From Patescibacteria group bacterium (GTDB lineage Bacteria > Patescibacteriota > Minisyncoccia > Moranbacterales > UBA2206): a DNA stretch of 64,000 nt. The notes below the pieces were generated by a model. That model did not search any database. It was not told the origin of the DNA and worked only from the letters and a program-made list of their open reading frames with translations. Position 1 is the stretch's first letter, and every line of letters begins with the position of its first letter. The stretch covers positions 40,260-104,259 of the forward strand of contig JAKLFF010000001.1 in assembly GCA_022711335.1 (NCBI GenBank), written 5' to 3'. The translations under genes and the position numbers were made by a program. Positions 15,930 to 59,389 of the stretch are shown here, in pieces.

Positions 15930-17798
15930 ATGACTGCCAGGGAACTTAGACAGAAATATTTGGATTTTTTTAAGGAGAAGGGACACGCAATTATCCCTTC
16001 GGCTTCAGTTGTCCCAGAAAACGATCCAACGACGCTTTTTATCACCGCTGGAATGCATCCGCTGGTTCCGTATTTAATGGGCGAAAAGCATCCGGATGGA
16101 GATAAATTGGCGGACGTTCAAAAATGCATTCGTACTGTGGACATAGATGAAGTTGGCGACAATCGCCACTTGACTTTTTTTGAAATGCTAGGCAACTGGT
16201 CACTCGGAGATTATTTCAAAAAAGATGCGATTTCCTGGAGCTTTGAATTTTTGACGAACAAAAAATGGCTTGGGCTTGATCCAAAAAGGATTTATGTGAC
16301 TGTTTTTGCGGGAGACAAAAAAGCGGGAGCTGGAAAAGACGAGGAATCAGTCGGGTATTGGAAAGCTGAATTTAAAAAATTAGGAATAGACGCAGGAGTG
16401 TGTGAATTAAATCAGAAAGCTGAAAAAAAAAGCCGCATTTTTATGTTGGGAATGGAGGATAATTTCTGGGGTCCGGCGGGAGAAACCGGCCCTTGTGGCC
16501 CTTGCAGCGAAATGTTTTATGACACTCGACCGGAAGAGGGAGAGCTTCAGGGAACTCACGAGGAGTTGGTGAAATCATTCCGCCTTATGGAAATTTGGAA
16601 TGATGTTTTTATGGAGTTCAATAAGAAAAAAGATGGAACGTACGAAAAAATGGCACGGCAAAATGTAGATACCGGAATGGGCCTCGAAAGGACTGTAACA
16701 GTGCTTAGCGGAACTCCAACTGTTTTTGAAACTGATTTATTTTTGCCAATACTTCAAAAAATTGAAGAAATTTCCGGGAAAAAATATGATGAATCGGAAG
16801 AAACTAAGCGGGCGATGCGAATAATCGCTGATCATATCAAAGCTTCTGTTTTTATTATCGCTGACGGCATGGAACCTTCCAATGTGCAAAGAGGGTATGT
16901 TCTTCGAAGATTAATTCGCCGGGCGATTAGACAGGGACATATTTTGGGAATTAATAATAATTTTACAGCAGAAATTACGAAAATTGTTCAGGAAATGTAT
17001 GGAGATGTTTATCCAGAAGTTGATAATAATAAAATTTTAGAGGTTTTAAATGGAGAAGAAGAGAAATTTAGAAAGACTTTGGAAAATGGGCTAAAAGAAT
17101 TTGATAAATTACAAAACTTTATAGCACAAGAATATCAAAAAAATAGTGAATTAAATTATATAACTGGAGGCGAGTTAGCATTTAAGTTATATCAAACATA
17201 TGGCTTCCCGTTAGAGATGTTTTTTGAAGAATTGGATAGTCGTCAAATTATTTATATAAAAAATAAAGTTGAAGAAAGTTTTAATAAAGAACTGGAAAAA
17301 CACCAGGAGCTTTCTCGAACTGCTAGTGCCGGAATGTTTAAAGGAGGCCTCGCCGATACTTTGGAAAAAACAACTCAACTTCATACTACTGCGCACTTGA
17401 TGCTGGCAGGGCTTAGGAAAGTTTTAGGGTCGCATATCCATCAAAAAGGATCAAATATAAACGGGGAAAGGCTGAGATTTGATTTTTCCCATCCGGAAAA
17501 AATGACGGATGAGCAGAAAAAAGCGGTGGAAGATTTTGTGAATGGAGCGATAAAATCCAATGCGGATGTAATCTTGGAAGAAATGACAGTCGATGAAGCC
17601 AAGTCTTCGGGAGCAGAAGGGGAGTTTGAACATAAGTATGGCGACAAAGTGAAAGTATATACTATTGGCCAATATTCCAAGGAAATCTGCGGCGGTCCCC
17701 ATGTGAAAAATACTTCAGAGATAAAGGGTATCTTTAAGATAAAAAAGGAAGAAAGCTCCAGCGCGGGAGTGAGAAGAATAAAGGCCACAGTGAATTAA
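15930..17798 (+). CDS. alaS: Alanyl-tRNA synthetase, short form (catalytic, tRNA-binding and editing domains; no C-Ala domain)
   Basis: The N-terminus is MTARELRQKYLDFFKEKGHAIIPSASVVP. The class II motifs are present. The editing-domain His/Cys motifs are HTTAHLM...CGGPHV. Confidence 0.9.
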   Translation: MTARELRQKYLDFFKEKGHAIIPSASVVPENDPTTLFITAGMHPLVPYLMGEKHPDGDKLADVQKCIRTVDIDEVGDNRHLTFFEMLGNWSLGDYFKKDAISWSFEFLTNKKWLGLDPKRIYVTVFAGDKKAGAGKDEESVGYWKAEFKKLGIDAGVCELNQKAEKKSRIFMLGMEDNFWGPAGETGPCGPCSEMFYDTRPEEGELQGTHEELVKSFRLMEIWNDVFMEFNKKKDGTYEKMARQNVDTGMGLERTVTVLSGTPTVFETDLFLPILQKIEEISGKKYDESEETKRAMRIIADHIKASVFIIADGMEPSNVQRGYVLRRLIRRAIRQGHILGINNNFTAEITKIVQEMYGDVYPEVDNNKILEVLNGEEEKFRKTLENGLKEFDKLQNFIAQEYQKNSELNYITGGELAFKLYQTYGFPLEMFFEELDSRQIIYIKNKVEESFNKELEKHQELSRTASAGMFKGGLADTLEKTTQLHTTAHLMLAGLRKVLGSHIHQKGSNINGERLRFDFSHPEKMTDEQKKAVEDFVNGAIKSNADVILEEMTVDEAKSSGAEGEFEHKYGDKVKVYTIGQYSKEICGGPHVKNTSEIKGIFKIKKEESSSAGVRRIKATVN

Positions 17799-17831
17799 TA
17801 TACAGCATGTAGCGTATAAAATCGAGCGATA

Positions 17832-17876
17832 AACAGGGAGTGACGCAGAAATTATGCGTTTGCTTCCTGTTTTTTG
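17832..17876 (+). terminator. Rho-independent terminator downstream of alaS
   Basis: The nested hairpin aaacagggagtgacgcagaaattatgcgtttgcttcctg is followed by tttttt. Confidence 0.5.
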
Positions 17877-18008
17877 TCTGAAGCTGGTTTTTTGACAAAT
17901 TCAGTTAAACGTGCTAAAGATACAATACTGAAAAGTAAGGGAGTTTTGCAAAGGGCAGGACTTTCTTGTTTGAGCGAGGAGAAATTTTTTGAGAAAAGGA
18001 GGCAGAAA

Positions 18009-18626
18009 ATGGTGAGAAAGTTCTTTGCAGCGACGGTGTTTTTTTCATTTATGGTTTTGTTTGCAGGTGCGGGACCGGCGTTGGCGTTGCCAACTCTTTA
18101 TCTGGACACTTTGCCTTCACAAACGGCCGGGGGGTATTATGTAGGGTACTCCGGCGGGCATCTGGACGGGGGACCGCCAATGGGTTTCTTATGCAATGAC
18201 TTTGCACATACGTCGTATGTGCCGAGTCACTTTGAGGTCAACGTCAGCACAATCCCAAGCCTGACATTCGCCAGATTCGGAAACGATGCAGCGGCGATTT
18301 TAAAGTATCAGGAGGCGGCGTGGCTGATGCTGCAGATGGATACGCATCCGGATGATGTCGGGAGCATACAGTATGCCATTTGGAACGTGTTCGCTCCTTC
18401 GACGCCAGACTATGGGACGTCGAACGCATGGCTGGCGTCGGCCGCTGGCGCTAACATGTCATTGTATGATTTTTCGTCTGTTCGCATCTATACCGCGACA
18501 GGCGCAGAAGCCTGGAACCAGGAGTTCATGTCCGGACACGCTTCTGCCGTGCCGGAGCCCGCATCAATGTTGCTGCTTGGATCCGGGCTCCTCGGCCTGG
18601 TGGGGGTCAAGAGAAAGTTCCTTTAG
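18009..18626 (+). CDS. Secreted PEP-CTERM sorting-domain protein, compositionally foreign (GC-rich)
   Basis: The signal peptide is MVRKFFAATVFFSFMVLFAGAGPALA. The C-terminus VPEPASMLLLGSGLLGLVGVKRKFL is a PEP motif, a TM helix and a basic cluster. A strong SD aaggagg precedes the ATG at 18009. GC content is visibly much higher than in the flanking genes. Confidence 0.6.
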   Translation: MVRKFFAATVFFSFMVLFAGAGPALALPTLYLDTLPSQTAGGYYVGYSGGHLDGGPPMGFLCNDFAHTSYVPSHFEVNVSTIPSLTFARFGNDAAAILKYQEAAWLMLQMDTHPDDVGSIQYAIWNVFAPSTPDYGTSNAWLASAAGANMSLYDFSSVRIYTATGAEAWNQEFMSGHASAVPEPASMLLLGSGLLGLVGVKRKFL

Positions 18627-18760
18627 CAGCTAGTGCAGGATGGGGTGTGTGAGACTTAAACAGTCTTCGCGCACTCCGTCCTGTTTTTTTATTCCTGTCT
18701 ATTGCATTCATATTCCATAGATGCTAAATTTTACATAAGAATAAAGAGTAATTAAAACAT

Positions 18761-19987
18761 ATGCCAAAAGTTATAACTGACGAAAAATTAATAGATGAAC
18801 TTTTAAGCCGGAGTGTTGCTGAAATTTTACCGTCAAAAAAAGACCTTAAGGATCTATTGACGTCGGGGAAAAGAATACGAATTTATATTGGCACCGATCC
18901 TACCGGAACATCACTTCACATCGGGCATGCAACTAATTATATAATTCTTGAAAAATTCAGAAAACTTGGTCATGAAGTTATTTTCTTAATCGGTGATTTT
19001 ACTGCTCGCATCGGAGATCCTTCGGACAAAAATTCAGTTCGTAAACAATTAACAAGGAAAGATGTAAAGAAAAATGTTGAAACCTGGCTGAAACAGATAG
19101 AGCCTATAATAAGCATTAAAGATAAAAACAACCCCGTAATAATTAAATATAATCATGACTGGCTGTCCAAACTGACATTTGAGGACGTTGTTAATCTAGC
19201 TTCTAATTTTACGGTCCAGCAGATGCTGGAGAGGGACATGTTTGAGAAGAGAATGAAAGATGGCAAGCCGATATTTCTGCATGAATTTTTTTATCCGTTA
19301 ATGCAGGGATATGACAGCGTGGCTATGGATGTTGATATTGAAATGTGTGGGAATGACCAAAAATTCAACGCTTTGGCAGGAAGAACTCTCTTAAGGAAGC
19401 TTAAGAACAAGGAAAAATTCGTTTTTATTACAACCCTTCTTGAAAATCCTGTAACGGGAGAAAAGATGATGTCTAAAAGCTTAGGAACAGGCGTGTTTTT
19501 GGATGGGGACAGCAATAATATGTTTGGGAAAATTATGGCTCAGCCCGATGAAAATTTGCCACAGCTATTCGCTGATTGCACCTATATATCAATGAACGAA
19601 GTCAATAAAATTAAAAATTCGCTAAAGGATTCTGAAGTTAATCCTAGAGATGTTAAATTGCGGTTAGCTTTTGAAATCGTAAAAATTTACCACGGTGAAA
19701 AAAAAGCCCAGGAAGCCAAAGAATATTTTGAAAAAGTTTTTTCACGGAAAGAAACTCCGGATGAAATCCAGGAAATAAAAATCAAAGAAGGAGAAAACAT
19801 TGTTGATTTTATAGTCAGAGCAGGAATGGCGGAGAGCAAAAGCGACGCGCGGAGGAAAATTGAGCAGGGCGGAGTGAAAATTGGCGGCGAAACAGTGAAA
19901 GATTCCAGTCTTGTTATTGGTAGTAGCTTTGACGGGAAGATTTTGAAGGTTGGAAAAAGAGAGTTTCGAAAAATCACCCTTGCATAA
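18761..19987 (+). CDS. tyrS: Tyrosyl-tRNA synthetase with C-terminal S4 domain
   Basis: The HIGH motif is GTDPTGTSLHIGHA and the KMSKS-like motif is KMMSKSLG. The S4-like C-terminus is IVDFIVRAGMAESKSDARRKIEQGGVKIGG. Confidence 0.85.
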   Translation: MPKVITDEKLIDELLSRSVAEILPSKKDLKDLLTSGKRIRIYIGTDPTGTSLHIGHATNYIILEKFRKLGHEVIFLIGDFTARIGDPSDKNSVRKQLTRKDVKKNVETWLKQIEPIISIKDKNNPVIIKYNHDWLSKLTFEDVVNLASNFTVQQMLERDMFEKRMKDGKPIFLHEFFYPLMQGYDSVAMDVDIEMCGNDQKFNALAGRTLLRKLKNKEKFVFITTLLENPVTGEKMMSKSLGTGVFLDGDSNNMFGKIMAQPDENLPQLFADCTYISMNEVNKIKNSLKDSEVNPRDVKLRLAFEIVKIYHGEKKAQEAKEYFEKVFSRKETPDEIQEIKIKEGENIVDFIVRAGMAESKSDARRKIEQGGVKIGGETVKDSSLVIGSSFDGKILKVGKREFRKITLA

Positions 19988-24498: not shown

Positions 24499-24661
24499 GT
24501 TTTTATCCCGCACCAATTCCGAACAGAAATAGTTGCTAAACAAGAATTATCACTCGGAAGCGCCTGCGGCTTAATTTTTAAGAATTATTTGTATTGTCTT
24601 GTGAGTTGGTGCGGGATGCTCAATTTTGTGGCTGCTCGCTCCGCTCGCAGACAAAATTGGC

Positions 24662-24775
24662 ATGAAAGTCAGAGCTTCAGTAAAAAAAATTTGTGATAAA
24701 TGCAAGACAATAAAGCGCAAAGGAAAACTTTACGTTATTTGTCCCAACCCAAAACATAAGCAGCGCCAAGGCTAA
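24662..24775 (+). CDS. rpmJ: 50S ribosomal protein L36 (37 aa; not in the supplied ORF track)
   Basis: The sequence translates to [37 protein letters not shown]. It has the zinc ribbon C-x2-C...C-x4-H and the canonical position between infA and rpsM. Confidence 0.85.
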
Positions 24776-24808
24776 CTGCGTTGCTGTTTTTCATAATCTA
24801 AAAAAAGT

Positions 24809-42655: not shown

Positions 42656-43923
42656 AAATTGCCATTCAAGCGGCGGATTTGGACAGCCAGCGGATTGATG
42701 GAACGCGGGTTTATATTTTGAATGTTCTAAAATACTTTGGAAAGCTCGATGAATCCAGTGATTTTTTGGTTTATCATAAAAAGAATTTCAATTCGGAACT
42801 CGAGCCGCCGGAATTTCCAAACTACAAAATAATTCAAAAAAATTCAGCTTGTATCTGGACGCAGACCAGATTTGCCTGGGAAATTTGGAAAGACAAGCCG
42901 GATGTCCTCTGGATGCCGATGCAGGCGCTTCCAATTATACGAAGGAAAAATCTTAAAACCGTGATAACTGTCCACGATCTGGCTTTCAAAATTTTTCCGA
43001 ATCAATTTACAAGAAATGATTTAAGGCGACTAAATTTTTATGCCGATTACGCTATAAAAAATTCTTCAAAAATAATCGCTGTTTCGGAGTCGACAAAAAA
43101 AGATATTTTAAAGTTTTATCCTGAAATAAAAGAAGATAAAATCAAAGTTATTTATCATGGGTTCGATGAAGGAGTTTTTGGTAAAAGATATGATAATAGT
43201 GAGATACTGGATATTTTGGAGAAATATAATATTATCAATAAAGTTCAAAGTTCAAAGTTCAAAGTTCAAAGCTACAGTTCAAAACTAAAAGTTACTTTTA
43301 AATACCTGCTATATGTCGGAGCTTTACAGCCAAGGAAAAATTTGATTTTATTGGTTAAGGCATTCGAAAGACTAAAAGAAAAATATTGTCATTCCGGCCA
43401 ACGAGCCGGAATCCAGTCTGGAAACAAAGATAATGCACTAGATTCCCGCTTTCGCGGGAATGACAAAAACGCCGGTGATTTTAGCAATTTGAAATTAGTT
43501 TTGGTTGGGAAACCAGCCTGGATGGCGGAAGAAATTTTAGAAAGAATAAAAAAATCAGAATTTGCAAACGATATAATTTTAGCCGGCCAAGTTGGCTTTG
43601 GTGATCTTGGTAAAATTTATCAAGGCGCCAGCGCTTTTGTGTTTCCCTCGCTTTATGAAGGCTTCGGGATTCCGATTTTGGAAGCTTTTGCGTCGGGAGT
43701 GTCGGTGATTTGCGCCAACAATTCTTCTCTTCCGGAAGTAGCCGGAGAAGCGGCGCTTTATTTCAAAAATAATAATCCTCAAGATTTAGCCATACAAATT
43801 GAAAAAATATTATTAAGCGAAGAATTTAAAAAAGACCTTGTTTCAAAAGGCCTCTTGCAGCTTCGAAAATTTTCTTGGGAAAAATGCGCCCGGGAAACTT
43901 TAAGTTATCTCAAATCAGGCTAA
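42652..43923 (+). CDS. Family-4 (GT-B) glycosyltransferase carrying a 7-bp tandem repeat and an in-frame MITE-like insertion in the interdomain region
   Basis: The C-terminal GT4 core is LLYVGALQPRKNL...FVFPSLYEGFGIPILEAFASGVSVICAN. Confidence 0.75.
   Translation: MKIAIQAADLDSQRIDGTRVYILNVLKYFGKLDESSDFLVYHKKNFNSELEPPEFPNYKIIQKNSACIWTQTRFAWEIWKDKPDVLWMPMQALPIIRRKNLKTVITVHDLAFKIFPNQFTRNDLRRLNFYADYAIKNSSKIIAVSESTKKDILKFYPEIKEDKIKVIYHGFDEGVFGKRYDNSEILDILEKYNIINKVQSSKFKVQSYSSKLKVTFKYLLYVGALQPRKNLILLVKAFERLKEKYCHSGQRAGIQSGNKDNALDSRFRGNDKNAGDFSNLKLVLVGKPAWMAEEILERIKKSEFANDIILAGQVGFGDLGKIYQGASAFVFPSLYEGFGIPILEAFASGVSVICANNSSLPEVAGEAALYFKNNNPQDLAIQIEKILLSEEFKKDLVSKGLLQLRKFSWEKCARETLSYLKSG
43241..43271 (+). 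repeat. Heptanucleotide tandem repeat (AAGTTCA)x4.4 inside the GT4 coding sequence
   Basis: aagttca aagttca aagttca aagttca aag. It translates as KVQSSKFKVQS. Confidence 0.85.
43387..43465. mobile_element. MITE-like double-hairpin element, copy 3, in-frame inside the GT4 gene
   Basis: tgtcattccggccaacgagccggaatccag, a spacer, then ctagattcccgctttcgcgggaatgaca. The encoded peptide is CHSGQRAGIQSGNKDNALDSRFRGNDK. Confidence 0.9.
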
Positions 43924-44321
43924 TTTTCTCCAAGCAGCAGTTTATAAATAAAATACCCGGTGGCTATTGCCAGAAAAGTTATAAAAATATTTAAAATCAG
44001 ATTTATTTTAATAAGGCTGACAAAAAGCAGCGCTATAAGAATAAAAATCAGCAAAATAGCTGTTTTTTTGTTTATTTTATTTTCAGCCAGTTTGATGCCC
44101 GCTTCGTTTCCAATATAAAAAACAGCCAGAATTGTGATTCCAACTGCGATTAGGATTTTTGAAAATCCGACATGGGATGTCACAGTTCCGGGCAATAATC
44201 CTTCGCCAATAAGCGCCAGCAAGAAGAAAATAATCTCAATAAACAGAAGATCATTGAGGAGTTTATATGAGATTATTAAATTGTTTTTGTTTATCTTGCT
44301 AAGCAGTTTGCTCGATTCCAT
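43920..44321 (-). CDS. Hypothetical small polytopic membrane protein
   Basis: 133 aa with about 4 TM helices. Confidence 0.45.
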   Translation of the reverse strand: MESSKLLSKINKNNLIISYKLLNDLLFIEIIFFLLALIGEGLLPGTVTSHVGFSKILIAVGITILAVFYIGNEAGIKLAENKINKKTAILLIFILIALLFVSLIKINLILNIFITFLAIATGYFIYKLLLGEN

Positions 44322-45456
44322 AATTAGCCATTATTTTATTAATCAAATCGCGGATAGTTGCTTTGAAATTATCCCAGCTTATTTGTTTTTTAAATGTTAC
44401 ATTAATCTTATCGATTTTTATTTCTTTGTTGGAATTTAATTGGAATTCATAATCTTTTCCGATCAAACCGGAAAACTTTTCAAGCGGAATTTCGCAGGAA
44501 TAAGTTCGGAGGCTCAAGATTTCTTTTTTAAGTCTGCAAGCCTCAATTGTTTCAAGGCTTTTTGCAGAAACGTCGACTGGGCCGGTTTTGCCTAAAGAAT
44601 TTAAAACTTCGCTGCTAGGAATAGAATTCTTCTTTCCATTTTCGACCAGATAGCTTTTTTTTGTGTCACTGGCGGTAAAAATCGTTCCATTGGGATGGGG
44701 ACTGCTGATTGTGAATAGCTTGTCTTTTTCATAAAAACTGATTTCATCGGCAGATGCGGGTATTACATTTTTCCAATTGTAGCCCATGGCGGAAAAAGTA
44801 ACCGTATTGTTTATCGGCAATATTTTTCCAGAGCTGACGACATAGGCGGAAATGCCGTAACTTAGAAGCGTTCCGTCGGCGTAGCCGATCATGTTTTCAT
44901 CAAGCGGATATTGGTTTAGGATTTTTGAATCTGCGATGGATGCTGCGCTTTCGTCATATCTGGAAGAGTAGGCGTTCTGGCTTATGAATTTTTGAAGCCT
45001 TCCATCGGTCAGCTTATAATAATCATCGTTTATCTTATAAATAACGGCATTTTCAACTTTAATCGGATCTCCTTCCGGATAGAAGAAAGACTGAAAAGAT
45101 TTTCTAGCCCTGATTTCCGAATCTTCAGGATTTTCAGAGGCTTTATCCATGGCCAACTCGATTTTTGCCTGTCCGTAATTTCCTGCAAGAGCTGCATCAA
45201 AGACAAGCTTATCGGCGGCGTCTATTTGCCCATGCTCCAAATAATTTCCTTCCGAATCTCTCGGGCTGATAACCGTATTTTTGAGCGAATTGGGAGTTGA
45301 AAAATTGTATGCAAAATAAGCGCTGGGAAATAGAATCAAGTAAGCGAAATAAATTGCTGATAGAAATGCAAGCAAATATAAAAACGCTTGTAGCTTCTTA
45401 TATGAGCCGTATTTTTTCTGGTCCATAAGAATCTGTCGAGTAAAATCTGGAAGCAT
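44299..45456 (-). CDS. Hypothetical protein with N-terminal TM anchor and large extracytoplasmic domain
   Basis: 385 aa with the TM AFLYLLAFLSAIYFAYLILF. No family motif was recognised. Confidence 0.5.
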   Translation of the reverse strand: MLPDFTRQILMDQKKYGSYKKLQAFLYLLAFLSAIYFAYLILFPSAYFAYNFSTPNSLKNTVISPRDSEGNYLEHGQIDAADKLVFDAALAGNYGQAKIELAMDKASENPEDSEIRARKSFQSFFYPEGDPIKVENAVIYKINDDYYKLTDGRLQKFISQNAYSSRYDESAASIADSKILNQYPLDENMIGYADGTLLSYGISAYVVSSGKILPINNTVTFSAMGYNWKNVIPASADEISFYEKDKLFTISSPHPNGTIFTASDTKKSYLVENGKKNSIPSSEVLNSLGKTGPVDVSAKSLETIEACRLKKEILSLRTYSCEIPLEKFSGLIGKDYEFQLNSNKEIKIDKINVTFKKQISWDNFKATIRDLINKIMANYGIEQTA

Positions 45457-45525
45457 GGAATTTCTATTTCTTGAACATTAAAAATTAGAATTTATTTAAA
45501 AATTACAAAATTAAAAATTATAAAA

Positions 45526-47352
45526 TTATCTCAGTTTGTATATTTTTCCGCTAACGGCTGCATCTTTTTCTATCGGCAGTTCAACTGGCGAAGAAATTAA
45601 CCCGCCATTTTTTTTAGCTTGAATATCCAGCCTTATAGTGCTGATTGAATAATCTTTGATTGGCGCGAGCTTTTCCATTAAACCAGATTTTTTGTACAAG
45701 CTCAAATTATTATTCGGGACAATGAAATAAATATGCTCGAATTTTTCCAAGCTTATCCTGCTGATATCATCCGGGTTGATAAAATAAACCGCTTGTTTTC
45801 CATATAAAAAACTCAACGGTCCGGTCATCATCGAAAATCCGTCTCCGGTGGCTTTTTGATCAACGAGAACCAGGTCTTTCTCGGAAAAATTTTTGCTTAT
45901 GGATCCAATTTTCTCAAGCATTCCGTTATTTTCCGAAGTTTTGATATGGAGCATGAACAAAGGCAAATTGGAAAGCAAAAGCAGGAAGGTTAGGAGATAG
46001 AAAGAACATTTTCTTTTTTTAAAAGATCTGTCTAAAAACATCACGGAATACAGAACGCATATGGGAAACACTGAAAAAACAAACCGGCGAAGCATCCAGG
46101 GATGGTCATCTGATATGCTGGGCTGGAACAAATAGAAAAAAGTCGGCAGCAGGACAAAAAAAGGGGCAATCTTCTTATATTCTTTTTTGCTTAAGAAATA
46201 AGCAAAACCGCAAATTCCCAAAAAAATGAAGCCAAGAAGATTATATAAGGCAAGTATTTTTGTGGTGTACCAAAATTCAAAAAATAGATTTGACGAACTG
46301 GCTATTCGGGCTCCCTGCCCCGAAACGGCATGAAAAAAAGCCTTTCCAATCGTTTTGTAATAATCTCCTCCTGAAAAAAATATATTCCACAGATAAAAGA
46401 ATAAAATAACCAAAAAAATCGCTGTAACCTTCTTGTTTTTTAGAAAGGAAAAACTAACTTTTTCATTTTTTCTGGACATTAGATATATGGCAATGGCCAG
46501 CACAGCCAGGAATCCGAGAGCTTCAGTTTTGACAAAAAGCAAGACCGAAAAAGATAGAAAAGCGGAAAACAAGGCGGTCTTTTCCCAGTTTTCAAGATAA
46601 AGAGCAAGCTGATAAAGGCCGAAAAATATAATTGGCAGAGCCAGATTTTCCGAAAGAGTAAATTTAAAAAACCAGGAAAATATGAAAGAAACAAAAAGCA
46701 GAAAGCAAGAGATGAGGGCGGGCATCTTGTTCAGATAAACTCGCGCCAAAAGATAGAAAAAGATTGAAAAAATAAAAAAAGCAGCGGCATTTGCAACAAT
46801 CAAGCCAGCAAGTCCGAAAAAAGAATAAAAAACAGCCAGCCAGGAAATGTATCCGACGGGAAAGCTGGTGACGAGGCTGCCTTTTTTTGTATAATTAAAT
46901 CCTGGAAAATCGAGCGCTTTTCCTGGTCCGTAAATTTTGAAAAATTCTTCCGATACTGGAGTGGAAAATTCCAGCTTATGATTTTGGGAAAGGCGAATGG
47001 CGGCTTCGCTATAAGAACCCTGATCGCGCCCGGAAAAAATTGTAGGAGTGGAAAAGGCGGAAAACAGCAGGATAAAACCGAAAGACGCGAGCGAAATAAC
47101 CCAAAAATGCCTTTCAATTTTTGAAAATAGTTTGTTTTTCAGGAAAAGGCGCGCCAGAAATACAATTCCAATCGTAATATACAAGAAGATTATTTCAACA
47201 TAAAATATGCCAAGTATTGCCAGGATAGACGAAACTAAAACCAGCCCCAGAAAAAAAAGTCCGGTAAAGTGAAAAAAAGCGCGGTTTTCAGAATTGGTGT
47301 CTGAATATTCCATAGTTAAATTATATCGTTTAATTCGTTCTTTGCCAAACAA
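45526..47352 (-). CDS. Polytopic membrane protein, probable GT-C-fold (ArnT/PMT-like) glycosyltransferase
   Basis: About 12 or more TM helices. The first-loop motif is SGRDQGSYSEAAIRL (D-x-x-x-Y-x-E-like). There is a C-terminal soluble domain. Confidence 0.5.
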   Translation of the reverse strand: MFGKERIKRYNLTMEYSDTNSENRAFFHFTGLFFLGLVLVSSILAILGIFYVEIIFLYITIGIVFLARLFLKNKLFSKIERHFWVISLASFGFILLFSAFSTPTIFSGRDQGSYSEAAIRLSQNHKLEFSTPVSEEFFKIYGPGKALDFPGFNYTKKGSLVTSFPVGYISWLAVFYSFFGLAGLIVANAAAFFIFSIFFYLLARVYLNKMPALISCFLLFVSFIFSWFFKFTLSENLALPIIFFGLYQLALYLENWEKTALFSAFLSFSVLLFVKTEALGFLAVLAIAIYLMSRKNEKVSFSFLKNKKVTAIFLVILFFYLWNIFFSGGDYYKTIGKAFFHAVSGQGARIASSSNLFFEFWYTTKILALYNLLGFIFLGICGFAYFLSKKEYKKIAPFFVLLPTFFYLFQPSISDDHPWMLRRFVFSVFPICVLYSVMFLDRSFKKRKCSFYLLTFLLLLSNLPLFMLHIKTSENNGMLEKIGSISKNFSEKDLVLVDQKATGDGFSMMTGPLSFLYGKQAVYFINPDDISRISLEKFEHIYFIVPNNNLSLYKKSGLMEKLAPIKDYSISTIRLDIQAKKNGGLISSPVELPIEKDAAVSGKIYKLR

Positions 47353-58891: not shown

Positions 58892-59389
58892 ATGGGAATA
58901 CCTCTTCCAATTCACATTTCAATACATGTCATTCTTAGCCTGATTGCGGGAATGATCGTTTGGCGGATCTGGAAAAAGCCGGCCGCTGCTTTTTTGAACG
59001 CGCTGATTTCCGGCGTGGCGGTGGATTTCGACCATTTCATCGATTATTTCATGGCTTTTGGATGGAGTTTCAATTTCTATTATTTTACCAAAGGATATGA
59101 ATTTCTGAAAACCAACAAGATGTATACGCTTTTTCACGGCTGGGAATATGCGGCAATTCTTTTCCTTGCGGTATTTTTATTAAAAAATAAAACGGCTAAA
59201 ACAGCACTCCTGGCTTTGGCGCTTGGACTTTTTTTCCATCTTGGAGCTGATGTCGTGATTGACAAGATTCCGGTTAAATCATATTCGATCATAAACAAGA
59301 TAGGAAAAAATTTTGAAATGCAAAAATTAGTCACCCCGGAGCACTGGCAGAAGCACGAGAAAAAAAGAGAGCGGTTGAAATTCGAATAA
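58892..59389 (+). CDS. Hypothetical polytopic membrane protein
   Basis: 165 aa with about 4 TM helices and a conserved-looking DFDHFIDY motif. Confidence 0.45.
   Translation: MGIPLPIHISIHVILSLIAGMIVWRIWKKPAAAFLNALISGVAVDFDHFIDYFMAFGWSFNFYYFTKGYEFLKTNKMYTLFHGWEYAAILFLAVFLLKNKTAKTALLALALGLFFHLGADVVIDKIPVKSYSIINKIGKNFEMQKLVTPEHWQKHEKKRERLKFE

Follow-up and report, generated by a model that had tools for sequence, protein, structure and literature searches.

The question raised by this locus is how a GC-rich gene for a protein with a PEP-CTERM tail came to lie between alaS and tyrS in a CPR (Patescibacteria) genome, and what its product could do there. The stretch of DNA analysed, hereafter the window, is 64 kb long, and a check of its open reading frames placed in the alaS–tyrS slot an ORF of 205 aa at positions 18009–18626 (on the + strand, like all the features described below except a target-site duplication, to which no strand is assigned). 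A sequence-only reading of the window had left two explanations, a recently acquired horizontal gene or a chimeric assembly join. We propose that the gene is genuine and has long resided in a Moranbacteria-like CPR lineage, which acquired it once and has inherited it vertically since, and that it encodes a covalent adhesin with a thioester-domain (TED)-like fold. Taken as a whole, this account seems to us probable, by a modest degree.

The compositional anomaly was marked. In 300-nt windows, the GC content was 0.52–0.57 within the gene and 0.26–0.46 around it. The gene itself had a GC of 0.545 and a GC3 of 0.620, compared to a GC of 0.393 for the window, and no other ORF of 80 aa or longer in the window lay outside the range 0.32–0.44, which bears out the contrast (mid-50s versus mid-30s %) initially estimated by eye. 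The windowed check of GC and tetranucleotide usage gave the same answer: in a sliding scan with a 618-nt frame (1,268 windows), the gene ranked first on both measures, with z = 4.7 for GC (0.471 in the window that came next without overlapping it) and z = 5.8 for tetranucleotide distance. The GC of the spacers was 0.381 upstream and 0.366 downstream, so that the GC-rich tract is limited to the CDS and coincides with it.

Such an abrupt GC step at both ends of a single gene could indicate DNA from another organism, introduced by a chimeric join or by mis-binning. At least 20 contigs, obtained with different assemblers from samples of ENA, JGI and Logan, nevertheless carried the exact protein in the alaS–tyrS slot. 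The junctions were inspected in 10 of these contigs. Seven were identical to the window over positions 17700–18900, two had 4 SNPs in alaS as their sole difference, and the last one differed 5' of the gene owing to an IS insertion. The matching junctions came from megahit, SPAdes, Logan and other assemblers and from at least 9 samples, in contigs of up to 208 kb. Since the identical gene and junctions recur in at least 20 independent contigs, the earlier idea of a chimeric join is refuted and the gene is real. In addition, diverged orthologous loci share the same arrangement, and the GC step sits at the CDS boundaries and not at arbitrary breakpoints. The probability that the segment belongs to another organism is in our opinion practically nil.

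The gene is bordered by conserved elements which delimit a transcription unit. The intrinsic terminator of alaS, a hairpin followed by a T-run recognised by folding and as an inverted repeat (17831–17878), forms the upstream edge of the inserted unit; the fold of the 17822–17885 segment had an energy of −27.3 kcal/mol (z = −5.3), and none of 200 shuffled sequences was as good. A promoter-like region then extends over positions 17892–17921, with TTGACA at 17892–17897, a 17-nt spacer that includes TG at 17912–17913, and TAAAGA(T) at 17915–17921. It was recognised by its conservation, being near-invariant in four lineages whose synonymous sites differ by 50–73%, and it probably acts as the promoter of the gene; owing to its weak −10 box, it escaped a consensus promoter scan. 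A 5' leader hairpin of 17 bp with an AAAGG loop follows at 17933–17971, its 5' arm resembling a Shine-Dalgarno (SD) sequence and its 3' arm an anti-SD. RNAalifold, applied to the four lineages, retained 17 pairs of which none was broken; nine showed one-sided changes with the pairing kept (10 sequence-cells), and the number of double compensatory changes was zero. An Rfam search with the leader and both strands of the gene returned chance-level matches only, and no second copy of the leader element, as a recurring regulon signal would have, was present in the window. Downstream, the gene possesses its own intrinsic terminator, predicted by folding as a 22-bp hairpin followed by T7 (18635–18690; −36 kcal/mol, z = −7.7, 0 of 200 shuffles as good), and this hairpin survives sequence changes in two of the orthologous loci (L011 and L013).

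The start of translation at ATG 18009, the one given by the sequence-only reading, was supported by the SD sequence AAGGAGG read at 17996–18002, 6 nt 5' of the ATG and kept in 4/4 lineages, by the conserved promoter-like region and by every ortholog. The TTG start of the public annotation, which would give a protein of 250 aa, was not supported. The sole mobility gene nearby was an ISL3 element beside the gene, specific to one strain (L005), in which the ISL3-family transposase gene was called. Alignment of the junctions of this strain to the window showed an 8-bp target-site duplication, CTGGTTTT, at 17884–17891, and the insertion point is just 5' of the −35 box of the gene. A direct repeat flanking the gene, TCCTGTTTTTT, was considered as a target-site duplication of the gene itself and rejected, because its two copies are the T-tails of two distinct terminator hairpins. 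Three neighbouring ORFs considered as partners (226 aa, L015; 231 aa, L140; 395 aa, L061) had no family matches and no mutual similarity. A large glycosyltransferase/polysaccharide cluster is located 20–45 kb downstream.

Orthologs of the gene were found between alaS and tyrS in four diverged lineages. The orthologs of the individual loci had identities of 80%, 71% and 63%, and between lineages the proteins were 67–83% identical, to be compared with 52–79% for TyrS. Across the four lineages, pS was 0.50–0.73, as in the flanking genes, and dN/dS was 0.10–0.16, which corresponds to purifying selection. Every contig of the same species carried the gene, with no presence/absence polymorphism among them. 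Outgroup relatives showed empty sites, in which alaS is directly followed by tyrS-speD (L062/L063, L066 and L068).

A scan of reference genomes, using an alignment of 14 sequences as query, showed that most occurrences of the family are in Desulfobacterota (Syntrophorhabdaceae, Syntrophus) and in Acidobacteriota. Its representatives number in the hundreds to thousands. The homologs from Syntrophorhabdaceae, Syntrophus and Syntrophaceae were 43–49% identical to the protein, and the closest homologs outside CPR 45–59%. The suggested comparison with homologs, to identify a donor lineage, gave Syntrophorhabdaceae and Syntrophus as the closest named relatives. In a neighbour-joining tree drawn without support values, the CPR copies were monophyletic and nested among Desulfobacterota sequences. 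The nearest outgroups were the sequences P0006 and P0007, the former from a host with a low GC (0.364). Beyond the clade, CPR homologs included a Yonathbacteria sequence (P0049), branching elsewhere in the tree, and a MAG labelled 'Patescibacteria' (L028). The empty alaS–tyrS sites, the compositional contrast and the nesting in a foreign clade together support a horizontal origin, most probably in the direction from a Desulfobacterota-type donor. The transfer is old, since the slot is filled by orthologs across four diverged lineages and their pS is similar to that of the flanks. Of the proposal of a recent horizontal gene, the horizontal part was consequently retained, on account of the nested clade and the empty sites, and the recent part was abandoned.

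An arrival recent enough for the gene of a GC-rich donor not to have been ameliorated would nevertheless account directly for the difference in GC from the host, for the foreign appearance of the G-ending codons (GCG, ACG, CCG, CTG) and for the kinship with Syntrophorhabdaceae and Syntrophus. It is difficult to reconcile with a slot filled in four lineages whose TyrS identity goes down to 52–56%, with AT-rich and host-like flanking non-coding DNA carrying conserved regulatory elements, or with the low identity of the closest homologs outside CPR. Moreover, the GC3 of the CPR copies (0.51–0.62) equals or exceeds that of the putative donor clade (0.42–0.60). We consider a recent transfer very improbable. 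A recently acquired genomic island was rejected on similar grounds, the flanks being host-like and conserved and the best non-CPR homolog at most 59% identical. Reverse transfer, in which the family would be native to CPR and would have spread to Desulfobacterota and Acidobacteriota, could draw on the presence of the gene in at least two CPR lineages (the present clade and Yonathbacteria) as well as in the 'Patescibacteria' MAG. On the other hand, sister CPR lineages have empty sites, the copies of the CPR clade make up a small branch nested in the tree, apart from the Yonathbacteria copy, and the representatives of the family are counted in hundreds to thousands. The CPR copies are also compositional outliers, whereas those of Desulfobacterota and Acidobacteriota mostly match their surroundings, with a GC within 0.06 of the flanks in 28 of 33 loci and 0.08–0.16 lower in the five others, all from Desulfobacterota. 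We give this direction even slightly less credit than a recent arrival.

Using the codon usage of the host, the amino-acid sequence would have an expected GC of 0.494, whereas the genome is at 0.393 and the gene at 0.545. Amino-acid composition thus accounts for about two thirds of the excess, the protein being rich in Ala, Gly, Pro, Ser and Thr and poor in Lys, Glu and Ile. The remainder is a preference for G-ending codons, and the persistence of the GC3 excess across lineages lies outside the account that we propose. Translational selection for GC3 was found unconvincing, as the excess concerns mainly G-ending codons and as Tyr, Asp and His show no shift to C-ending codons; the GC3 of the ribosomal-protein genes of the window, 0.35–0.51, was also weighed against it. 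A sharp GC island does not necessarily signal a recent transfer or a misassembly, and here it is no proof of recency because the gene is old and well integrated and most of the signal comes from its amino-acid composition.

The protein begins with a signal peptide (aa 1–26, 18009–18086), present as claimed by the sequence-only reading and recognised by inspection: MVRK, a hydrophobic core and PALA|LP, with a modelled helix at residues 3–19. Only 4 of the 26 positions of this region were invariant in the CPR clade, and poor conservation is typical of signal peptides. The homologs all share the same layout by inspection, including the N-terminal signal peptide. The other end carries the PEP-CTERM signal (aa 180–205, 18546–18623), composed of VPEP, a Gly-rich transmembrane helix and the basic tail KRKFL. 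The Pfam and NCBIfam models matched residues 180–203 of 205, with 30.3 bits for PF07589 (cut-off 20.7) and 23.6 for TIGR02595 (cut-off 16); the description of a textbook tail was therefore justified by curated thresholds. The tail was the only part of the protein to pass cut-offs, no Pfam or NCBIfam family covering the whole protein. A partial match to the model of the flocculation protein PepA (NF033554; residues 141–203, 36 bits) and another partial match, to NF038129, were both below cut-off.

The sequence-only reading had taken exosortase systems to belong to exopolysaccharide-producing Gram-negative bacteria. No exosortase (EpsH/Xrt; PF09721, TIGR02602, TIGR04178) was found among the Pfam matches of the genes called over about 80 kb, from approximately 7.5 kb before the window to approximately 6 kb beyond, nor when 10 proteins of the window, unknown or membrane ones, were scanned with NCBIfam (E ≤ 1), in agreement with the earlier statement that the window has no exosortase gene. 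A search of the literature on exosortases in Patescibacteria or Parcubacteria returned nothing relevant. The PEP-CTERM tail of the gene was also the only one in the window and its approximately 14 kb of flank, and native systems usually have many PEP-CTERM proteins per genome, often close to EPS loci. These observations are in favour of a tail which would remain unprocessed for want of an exosortase and would act as a plain C-terminal membrane anchor displaying the domain on the cell membrane. The inspected 80 kb nevertheless represents about 8–10% of a typical CPR genome. In addition, the four residues of VPEP were invariant in five CPR sequences while none of the six adjacent residues was, and a motif invariant amid variable neighbours suggests that VPEP itself, as a recognition motif, is under selection in the CPR clade. 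We estimate that a plain anchor has a substantial chance of being correct, a little short of even.

The part of the protein between the two signals gave an indication of function, in the form of a predicted fold and of Cys and Gln motifs which the earlier reading had not seen. An AF2 model (pLDDT 94) submitted to Foldseek matched the TED structure 5a0g with a probability of 1.0 (E = 6e-4), and by this model residues 27–176 (18087–18536) adopt a TED-like fold, with a beta region, three core helices and a second beta region. [quoted passage not shown] None of 49 members of the family, and none of the named homologs of the tree, had another residue there. The motif itself, L-C-N-D here, was Y-C-V-D, I-C-D-D or A-C-V-D in relatives, so that the residue after the Cys is not always hydrophobic. 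I-Q-Y-A-I-W (aa 120–125, 18366–18383), in helix 114–128, is the equivalent of the central-helix TQxA(I/V)W motif; W125 was invariant, and Q121 was invariant in the 14 closest sequences and replaced by Asn in a few distant members. The predicted thioester glutamine, Q171, lies in N-Q-E-F-M (18516–18530), which adjoins strand 173–175. Both Q171 and E172 were invariant in the 49 members, and a divergent Acidobacteriota member (L046) was devoid of the Q motif.

The topology and the three motifs fit the published definition of TEDs, which includes [YFL]C-Phi-zeta and, in the central helix, TQxx-Phi-W or TQxA(I/V)W, common but not universal (PMC4450167). The thioester Cys and Gln are the sole residues universally conserved in bona fide TEDs (PMC4450167). 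The Pfam TED model PF08341 had no match to the window protein at E ≤ 1, and matched a single one of the 49 members (P0044), below threshold, with 17.1 bits for a cut-off of 22 over profile positions 2–87 of 102; this match begins at LYCVD, and P0044 aligns to the window protein with E = 7e-24. The profile of the family matched no solved TED structure at E ≤ 10.

It is possible that the fold is TED-like and that no reactive thioester forms, the likeness reflecting distant ancestry only, the Cys being used otherwise, or the protein having a non-covalent role in structure, matrix or flocs, as PepA of Zoogloea. The partial match to the PepA model would fit this interpretation, as would the hosts, all of them dwellers of flocs, granules or soil aggregates, the sequence identity to solved TEDs of just 7–13% and the silence of the profile search. 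Against it, the residues that match the universal Cys and Gln of TEDs are invariant here, as is the helix Trp, and it is difficult to see what else would keep a lone Cys so conserved in a secreted protein. We hold a thioester-free protein to be unlikely, though well worth considering, and the formation of an internal Cys62–Gln171 thioester to be the better interpretation of the conserved motifs.

In the model that we propose, the ancestor of the clade would have acquired the gene once, from a donor resembling Syntrophorhabdaceae or Syntrophus among the Desulfobacterota, by insertion into the ancestral alaS–tyrS junction. Vertical inheritance under purifying selection would have followed, the gene forming a transcription unit of its own that comprises the promoter-like region, the leader hairpin, a strong SD and a terminator, and its GC anomaly reflecting mostly amino-acid composition together with the persistent preference for G-ending codons. 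The product would be a Sec-exported, single-domain surface protein consisting of a minimal TED (27–176), approximately five residues, and the PEP-CTERM signal. After export, the TED would fold and the internal thioester between Cys62 and Gln171 would form spontaneously. The C-terminal helix and the basic tail would hold the protein in the membrane, where it may stay, or from which it may be released by cleavage at VPEP and handed on by an exosortase-type enzyme. The thioester would finally react with a primary amine, for example of a Lys, on the surface of a partner cell or on a matrix polymer, and the resulting isopeptide bond would provide covalent adhesion. The existence of the gene, its synteny, age and selection, the direction of its transfer, the fold and the conserved motifs are backed by the results above, and the formation of the thioester, its target, the processing of the tail and any role in host attachment are the conjectural elements of this scheme. 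The TED is located about five residues from VPEP, without a stalk. An unprocessed protein in a monoderm-like CPR envelope might fail to reach its partner.

Compared with the class I TEDs of known structure, CpTIE (5a0g), SfbI (5a0l), Cpa/Spy0125 (2xi9, 4c0z) and FNE (5dcq), to which the window protein has the 7–13% identity mentioned above, the domain is smaller (about 150 aa) and the spacing between Cys and Gln shorter, 109 instead of 129–152 (129 in CpTIE). The protein has no stalk, no isopeptide or ester domains and no fibronectin-binding repeats, and its anchor is of the PEP-CTERM type, whereas class I TEDs use LPXTG and a sortase. Its hosts are not Firmicutes or Actinobacteria but CPR and two diderm groups, Desulfobacterota and Acidobacteriota; no curated TED model reaches its threshold, and the thioester is here only predicted. 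The resemblance to PEP-CTERM cargo such as Zoogloea PepA (NF033554) lies in the signal peptide, VPEP, the Gly-rich transmembrane helix and the basic tail, in the small single-domain format, in the partial match to the PepA model and in the existence of relatives in Gram-negative bacteria forming flocs or aggregates. The protein differs from this cargo (NF033554, NF038129, NF038125 and others) in that no curated family covers it entirely, scores being far below the cut-offs, and in that it is encoded by a CPR genome as the sole PEP-CTERM gene of a region of about 80 kb with no exosortase. No link between the thioester-domain fold and PEP-CTERM proteins was found in the searchable literature.

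A precedent for the kind of role that a CPR episymbiont could use is TIE(pLS20), the class II TED adhesin of the Bacillus subtilis plasmid pLS20, which attaches bacterium to bacterium, and not to an animal host, in mating-pair formation (PMC8092201). That protein is a plasmid-borne, Gram-positive, multidomain one of 778 aa with CnaB stalk domains and a class II slipknot beta-sandwich (PMC8092201), and it is compared with the present gene at the level of fold class only. Complement C3/C4 and alpha-2-macroglobulin are very large proteins with a CGEQ motif and an unrelated fold, an alpha-alpha toroid TED, and have no evolutionary relationship to it.

The lifestyle generally supposed for CPR bacteria is one of attachment to other cells, for which few molecules are known. 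The present protein, conserved, under selection and predicted to carry a covalent-bonding warhead at the surface, offers a concrete candidate for this attachment. A broader hypothesis is that a large and unannotated family of minimal TEDs is sorted by the PEP-CTERM/exosortase route in Desulfobacterota and Acidobacteriota, and that the member captured by CPR, and long kept there under selection, mediates covalent attachment of the ultra-small cell to a host or to a granule matrix; we put this forward tentatively, as a rather unlikely but consequential extension. To our knowledge, thioester adhesins have so far been described only in Gram-positive bacteria. If the hypothesis is true, the range of TEDs would extend past the Gram-positive LPXTG adhesins to diderms and CPR, in a reduced and stalk-less form, and the CPR would either encode an exosortase-like processing enzyme or have repurposed the signal as an anchor. 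Wastewater bacteria require PEP-CTERM proteins to form flocs, and we know of no established chemistry for the action of these proteins. The presence of a thioester fold in a family of hundreds to thousands of members suggests that PEP-CTERM proteins may cross-link covalently to amines of a matrix or partner, and their role in floc formation would thereby gain a concrete and testable chemistry.

The 205-aa ORF at 18009–18626 (+), located between alaS and tyrS, was present in the window and ranked first in a sliding 618-nt scan (1,268 windows) both for GC (z=4.7; 0.471 in the next stretch without overlap) and for tetranucleotide distance (z=5.8). Its overall GC was 0.545 and its GC3 0.620, compared to a window mean GC of 0.393 and to 0.32–0.44 for all other window ORFs of at least 80 aa, which bears out the contrast with the neighbouring genes perceived in the sequence-only reading. 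In 300-nt windows the GC was 0.52–0.57 inside the gene versus 0.26–0.46 across the surrounding 9 kb. The GC-rich tract coincided exactly with the CDS, the upstream (17799–18008) and downstream (18627–18760) spacers having values of 0.381 and 0.366, respectively. When host codon usage was applied to the same protein, a GC of 0.494 and a GC3 of 0.456 were obtained, and about two-thirds of the GC excess over 0.393 is therefore explained by amino-acid composition: Ala (13.2% in the gene, 6.3% in the host) and Gly (9.8% and 6.5%) are enriched, and Lys (2.0% and 10.9%), Glu (2.4% and 7.5%) and Ile (2.4% and 8.7%) depleted. The rest is a codon effect, chiefly of the G-ending codons GCG, GGG, ACG, TCG, CTG, AAG and GAG. 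The GC3 excess was kept in four lineages, the window's own and three diverged CPR ones with an ortholog in the alaS–tyrS slot (L011, L013 and L015), with 0.505–0.621 in the gene versus 0.26–0.43 in the flanking genes. It persisted despite a synonymous turnover equal to that of the flanks, the divergence being equally saturated in both. Simple translational selection seems an unlikely cause, because Tyr, Asp and His are not moved toward C-ending codons and because the window ribosomal-protein genes have a GC3 of 0.35–0.51.

Such a compositional island had been taken for either a chimeric assembly join or a recent horizontal gene. The identical protein was recorded in at least 20 contigs, under the source name "Candidatus Moranbacteria bacterium". 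Ten contigs were inspected, from ENA, JGI and Logan samples, produced by different assembly programs and measuring up to 208 kb. The gene was directly 5' of tyrS in all ten and immediately 3' of alaS in nine. Over positions 17700–18900, seven were identical to the window and two had 4 SNPs inside alaS. In the remaining one, L005 (JGI 3300028907), an ISL3-family IS (1307–2503) sits between the alaS terminator and the −35 box of the gene. The insertion, at window 17884–17891, left a clean target duplication of 8 bp, CTGGTTTT; the inverted repeat of the IS begins GGCTCTTTAACAAAT. The recurrence of the junctions in independently assembled contigs refutes the chimeric join.

A horizontal origin was supported, the recent date was not. 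The nearest non-identical homologs (80%, 71% and 63% identity) all lay between alaS and tyrS, on other low-GC contigs. Among the four lineages, identity was 67–83% for the protein, 52–79% for TyrS and 75–81% for the AlaS C-terminus. The dN/dS of the gene was 0.10–0.16 (Nei–Gojobori) and its synonymous differences, 0.50–0.73 per site, were in the same range as those of alaS and tyrS; purifying selection has thus acted on the gene as it diverged along with its hosts. A metagenome scan using the AlaS C-terminus of the CPR clade recovered outgroup relatives in which alaS is directly followed by tyrS–speD and the gene is absent. The spacer measures 64 nt in L062/L063 (AlaS C-terminus 78%, TyrS 75%), and the sites of L066 and L068 are likewise empty. 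The ancestral state is thus the alaS–tyrS junction, into which the gene was inserted. In an NJ tree of the domain (without support values), the five CPR sequences of the alaS–tyrS slot were monophyletic and nested among Desulfobacterota; their nearest outgroups were P0006/P0007, the host of P0006 being also low-GC (0.364). Among reference genomes, the closest named relatives (43–49% identity) were found in Desulfobacterota, including Syntrophorhabdaceae, Syntrophus and Syntrophaceae, and the family was also present in many Acidobacteriota and one other "Patescibacteria" MAG. The GC of the gene was within 0.06 of its surroundings in 28 of the 33 loci of these hosts. A second CPR copy, P0049 (L059 2447–3010, Ca. 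Yonathbacteria GCA_001823575.1; 34% identity, murD–murC context), branches away from the alaS–tyrS-slot clade, which implies a separate acquisition. It has PVP in place of PEP, and a GC of 0.544 versus 0.481 in the flanks. The GTDB species-representative scan recovered neither the window's lineage nor the three orthologous ones; their genomes may be absent from or masked in this collection, since the search patterns match the sequences of all four.

In the most diverged lineage, an extra 226-aa ORF, without Pfam match, lies between alaS and the gene (L015 3445–4125, L016 1126–1806), with both a terminator and a promoter-like region (TTGACA) of its own. Positions 1–160 of L011 are a remnant of this unit, consisting of the start of the leader and the terminator only. 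The alaS–tyrS spacer is therefore a site at which genes were repeatedly gained and lost. A 395-aa ORF follows alaS in L061. The infA–rpsM spacer (window ~24499–24808) shows an indel polymorphism: contigs of one species differ there by about 130–180 nt, with the rpsM start at 16642 in L003, 16671 in L001, 16801 in L002 and 16823 in L004. The segment 11764–15143 encodes a DUF8128 protein and then a TraG/VirD4-like coupling ATPase (668 aa, zinc ribbon at the C-terminus); upstream of alaS there are three small ORFs. A TraG-like gene similar to that of the window is found near the Yonathbacteria homolog (L059 8774–10498). A large polysaccharide/glycosyltransferase cluster occupies 38635–63110, with rfb-type genes, several GT2 and GT4 genes, a flippase, a B12-binding radical SAM enzyme, a 582-aa TPR protein and a DUF4012 protein; several of its membrane or unknown proteins (43920–47352, 58892–59389) had no family match.

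The gene is a well-integrated transcription unit. The end of alaS has its own terminator hairpin (z=−5.3), and a putative promoter, suggested by conservation, is located at 17892–17921. It reads TTGACA-N17-TAAAGA(T), has a TG upstream, and precedes a leader of ~80 nt. This promoter-like region and the leader vary hardly at all among the four lineages, whose synonymous sites are largely randomised. A 17-bp leader hairpin at 17933–17971 shows zero broken pairs in the window lineage, L011, L013 and L015, with 10 one-sided changes (sequence-cells) between wobble and Watson–Crick over nine pairs and no double compensatory change. It matched no Rfam family and has no second copy within the window. 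Its arms are SD-like (5', AAGGGAG) and anti-SD-like (3', CUUUCUU), the real SD being ~25 nt downstream, and a role of the hairpin in controlling translation or transcription is possible. The strong terminator of the gene (−36 kcal/mol, z=−7.7) keeps its hairpin through the sequence changes in L011 and L013. The public annotation, P0001, has 250 aa from a TTG at 17874, which precedes the conserved −35 box (17892). The correct start is the ATG at 18009: this box, the SD (AAGGAGG, 17996–18002) and all orthologs, which begin at the same ATG, point there.

From this start, the N-terminus looks like a Sec signal peptide (MVRK, then a hydrophobic core and PALA|LP), and the PEP-CTERM C-terminus scores above the curated cut-offs (PF07589, 30.3 bits versus 20.7; TIGR02595, 23.6 versus 16), in agreement with the initial description of the two ends. 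Apart from this tail, no Pfam or NCBIfam family reached threshold. An AlphaFold2 model from 49 homologs (pLDDT 94, pTM 0.81) predicted strands at aa 29–81, three helices at 94–147, strands at 159–175 and a C-terminal transmembrane helix at 185–204. The Foldseek top ranks were 5a0g, 4c0z and 5a0l (probability 0.97–1.0, E down to 6e-4). Thioester domains (TEDs) are defined by a beta-helices-beta topology and three motifs: [YFL]C-Phi-zeta, which supplies the thioester Cys from a strand; TQxx-Phi-W in the central helix; and Phi-Q-zeta-Phi-Phi, with the thioester Gln, on a strand close to the domain end (Walden et al. 2015, PMC4450167). The corresponding residues, which are family invariants, are C62 at a strand end (F-L-C-N-D), W125 in the central helix (I-Q-Y-A-I-W) and Q171-E172 adjoining the last strand (N-Q-E-F-M); P182 and P184 are part of the PEP motif. 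The family member P0044, which aligns to the window protein with E=7e-24, reached 17.1 bits (cut-off 22) with the Pfam TED model PF08341, covering model positions 2–87 of 102 from its L-Y-C-V-D onward. The family profile searched by sequence against solved structures found no TED. The confident model, the Foldseek ranks, the motifs and the P0044 link together make a TED fold highly probable, and a real Cys62–Gln171 thioester is predicted and somewhat likely. Residues 141–203 also match the NCBIfam PepA model NF033554 (Zoogloea flocculation protein) at 36 bits (cut-off 80), covering the NQEF motif beyond the PEP tail alone; the family may be distantly related to PepA.

An exhaustive profile search covering 1.84 billion cluster representatives yielded 482 proteins at E<=1e-30, 3,149 at E<=1e-10 and 11,595 at E<=1e-3, the weakest of which may be PEP-CTERM tails only. 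The best 150 were almost all 195–260 aa, and the sources annotate members as "hypothetical" or "PEP-CTERM" proteins. In P0115 (2500 aa), ten separate matches to profile positions 154–200, the NQEF to PEP-CTERM-proximal part, suggest that this segment can occur as a repeat. The TEDs of the searchable literature are Gram-positive and belong to multidomain, mostly LPXTG-anchored adhesins (PMC4450167, PMC8092201), whereas the window protein is a minimal single domain with a PEP-CTERM tail; no paper in this literature mentioned "thioester domain" together with "PEP-CTERM".

The domain layout and its conservation are observed, and on this basis we propose the following model. The protein would be exported by Sec and its signal peptide cut after Ala26; the TED would fold, with spontaneous formation of the Cys62–Gln171 thioester, and the C-terminal helix and basic tail would retain the protein. 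A primary amine of a partner surface or matrix polymer would then attack the thioester, giving an isopeptide link. There are precedents in SfbI, which binds Lys100 of fibrinogen (PMC4450167), and in the pLS20 TED adhesin, required for bacterial mating-pair formation (PMC8092201). The tail may instead be cut by an exosortase in this CPR lineage, as the four VPEP residues are invariant across five CPR sequences and the four residues before and two after are all variable. However, no exosortase was present among all called genes over ~80 kb, extending what had been noted for the window, and 10 membrane or unknown proteins scanned against NCBIfam with lax settings gave none either; the region has a single PEP-CTERM tail, and the searchable literature gives no link between exosortases and Patescibacteria. 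The adhesin reading has a weakness of its own: the TED-like domain has no stalk, and unprocessed it may be too near the membrane to reach a partner. The more interesting content of this locus is that the cargo domain, a member of a large unannotated PEP-CTERM family, has a minimal TED-like fold and was retained under selection in a CPR clade.
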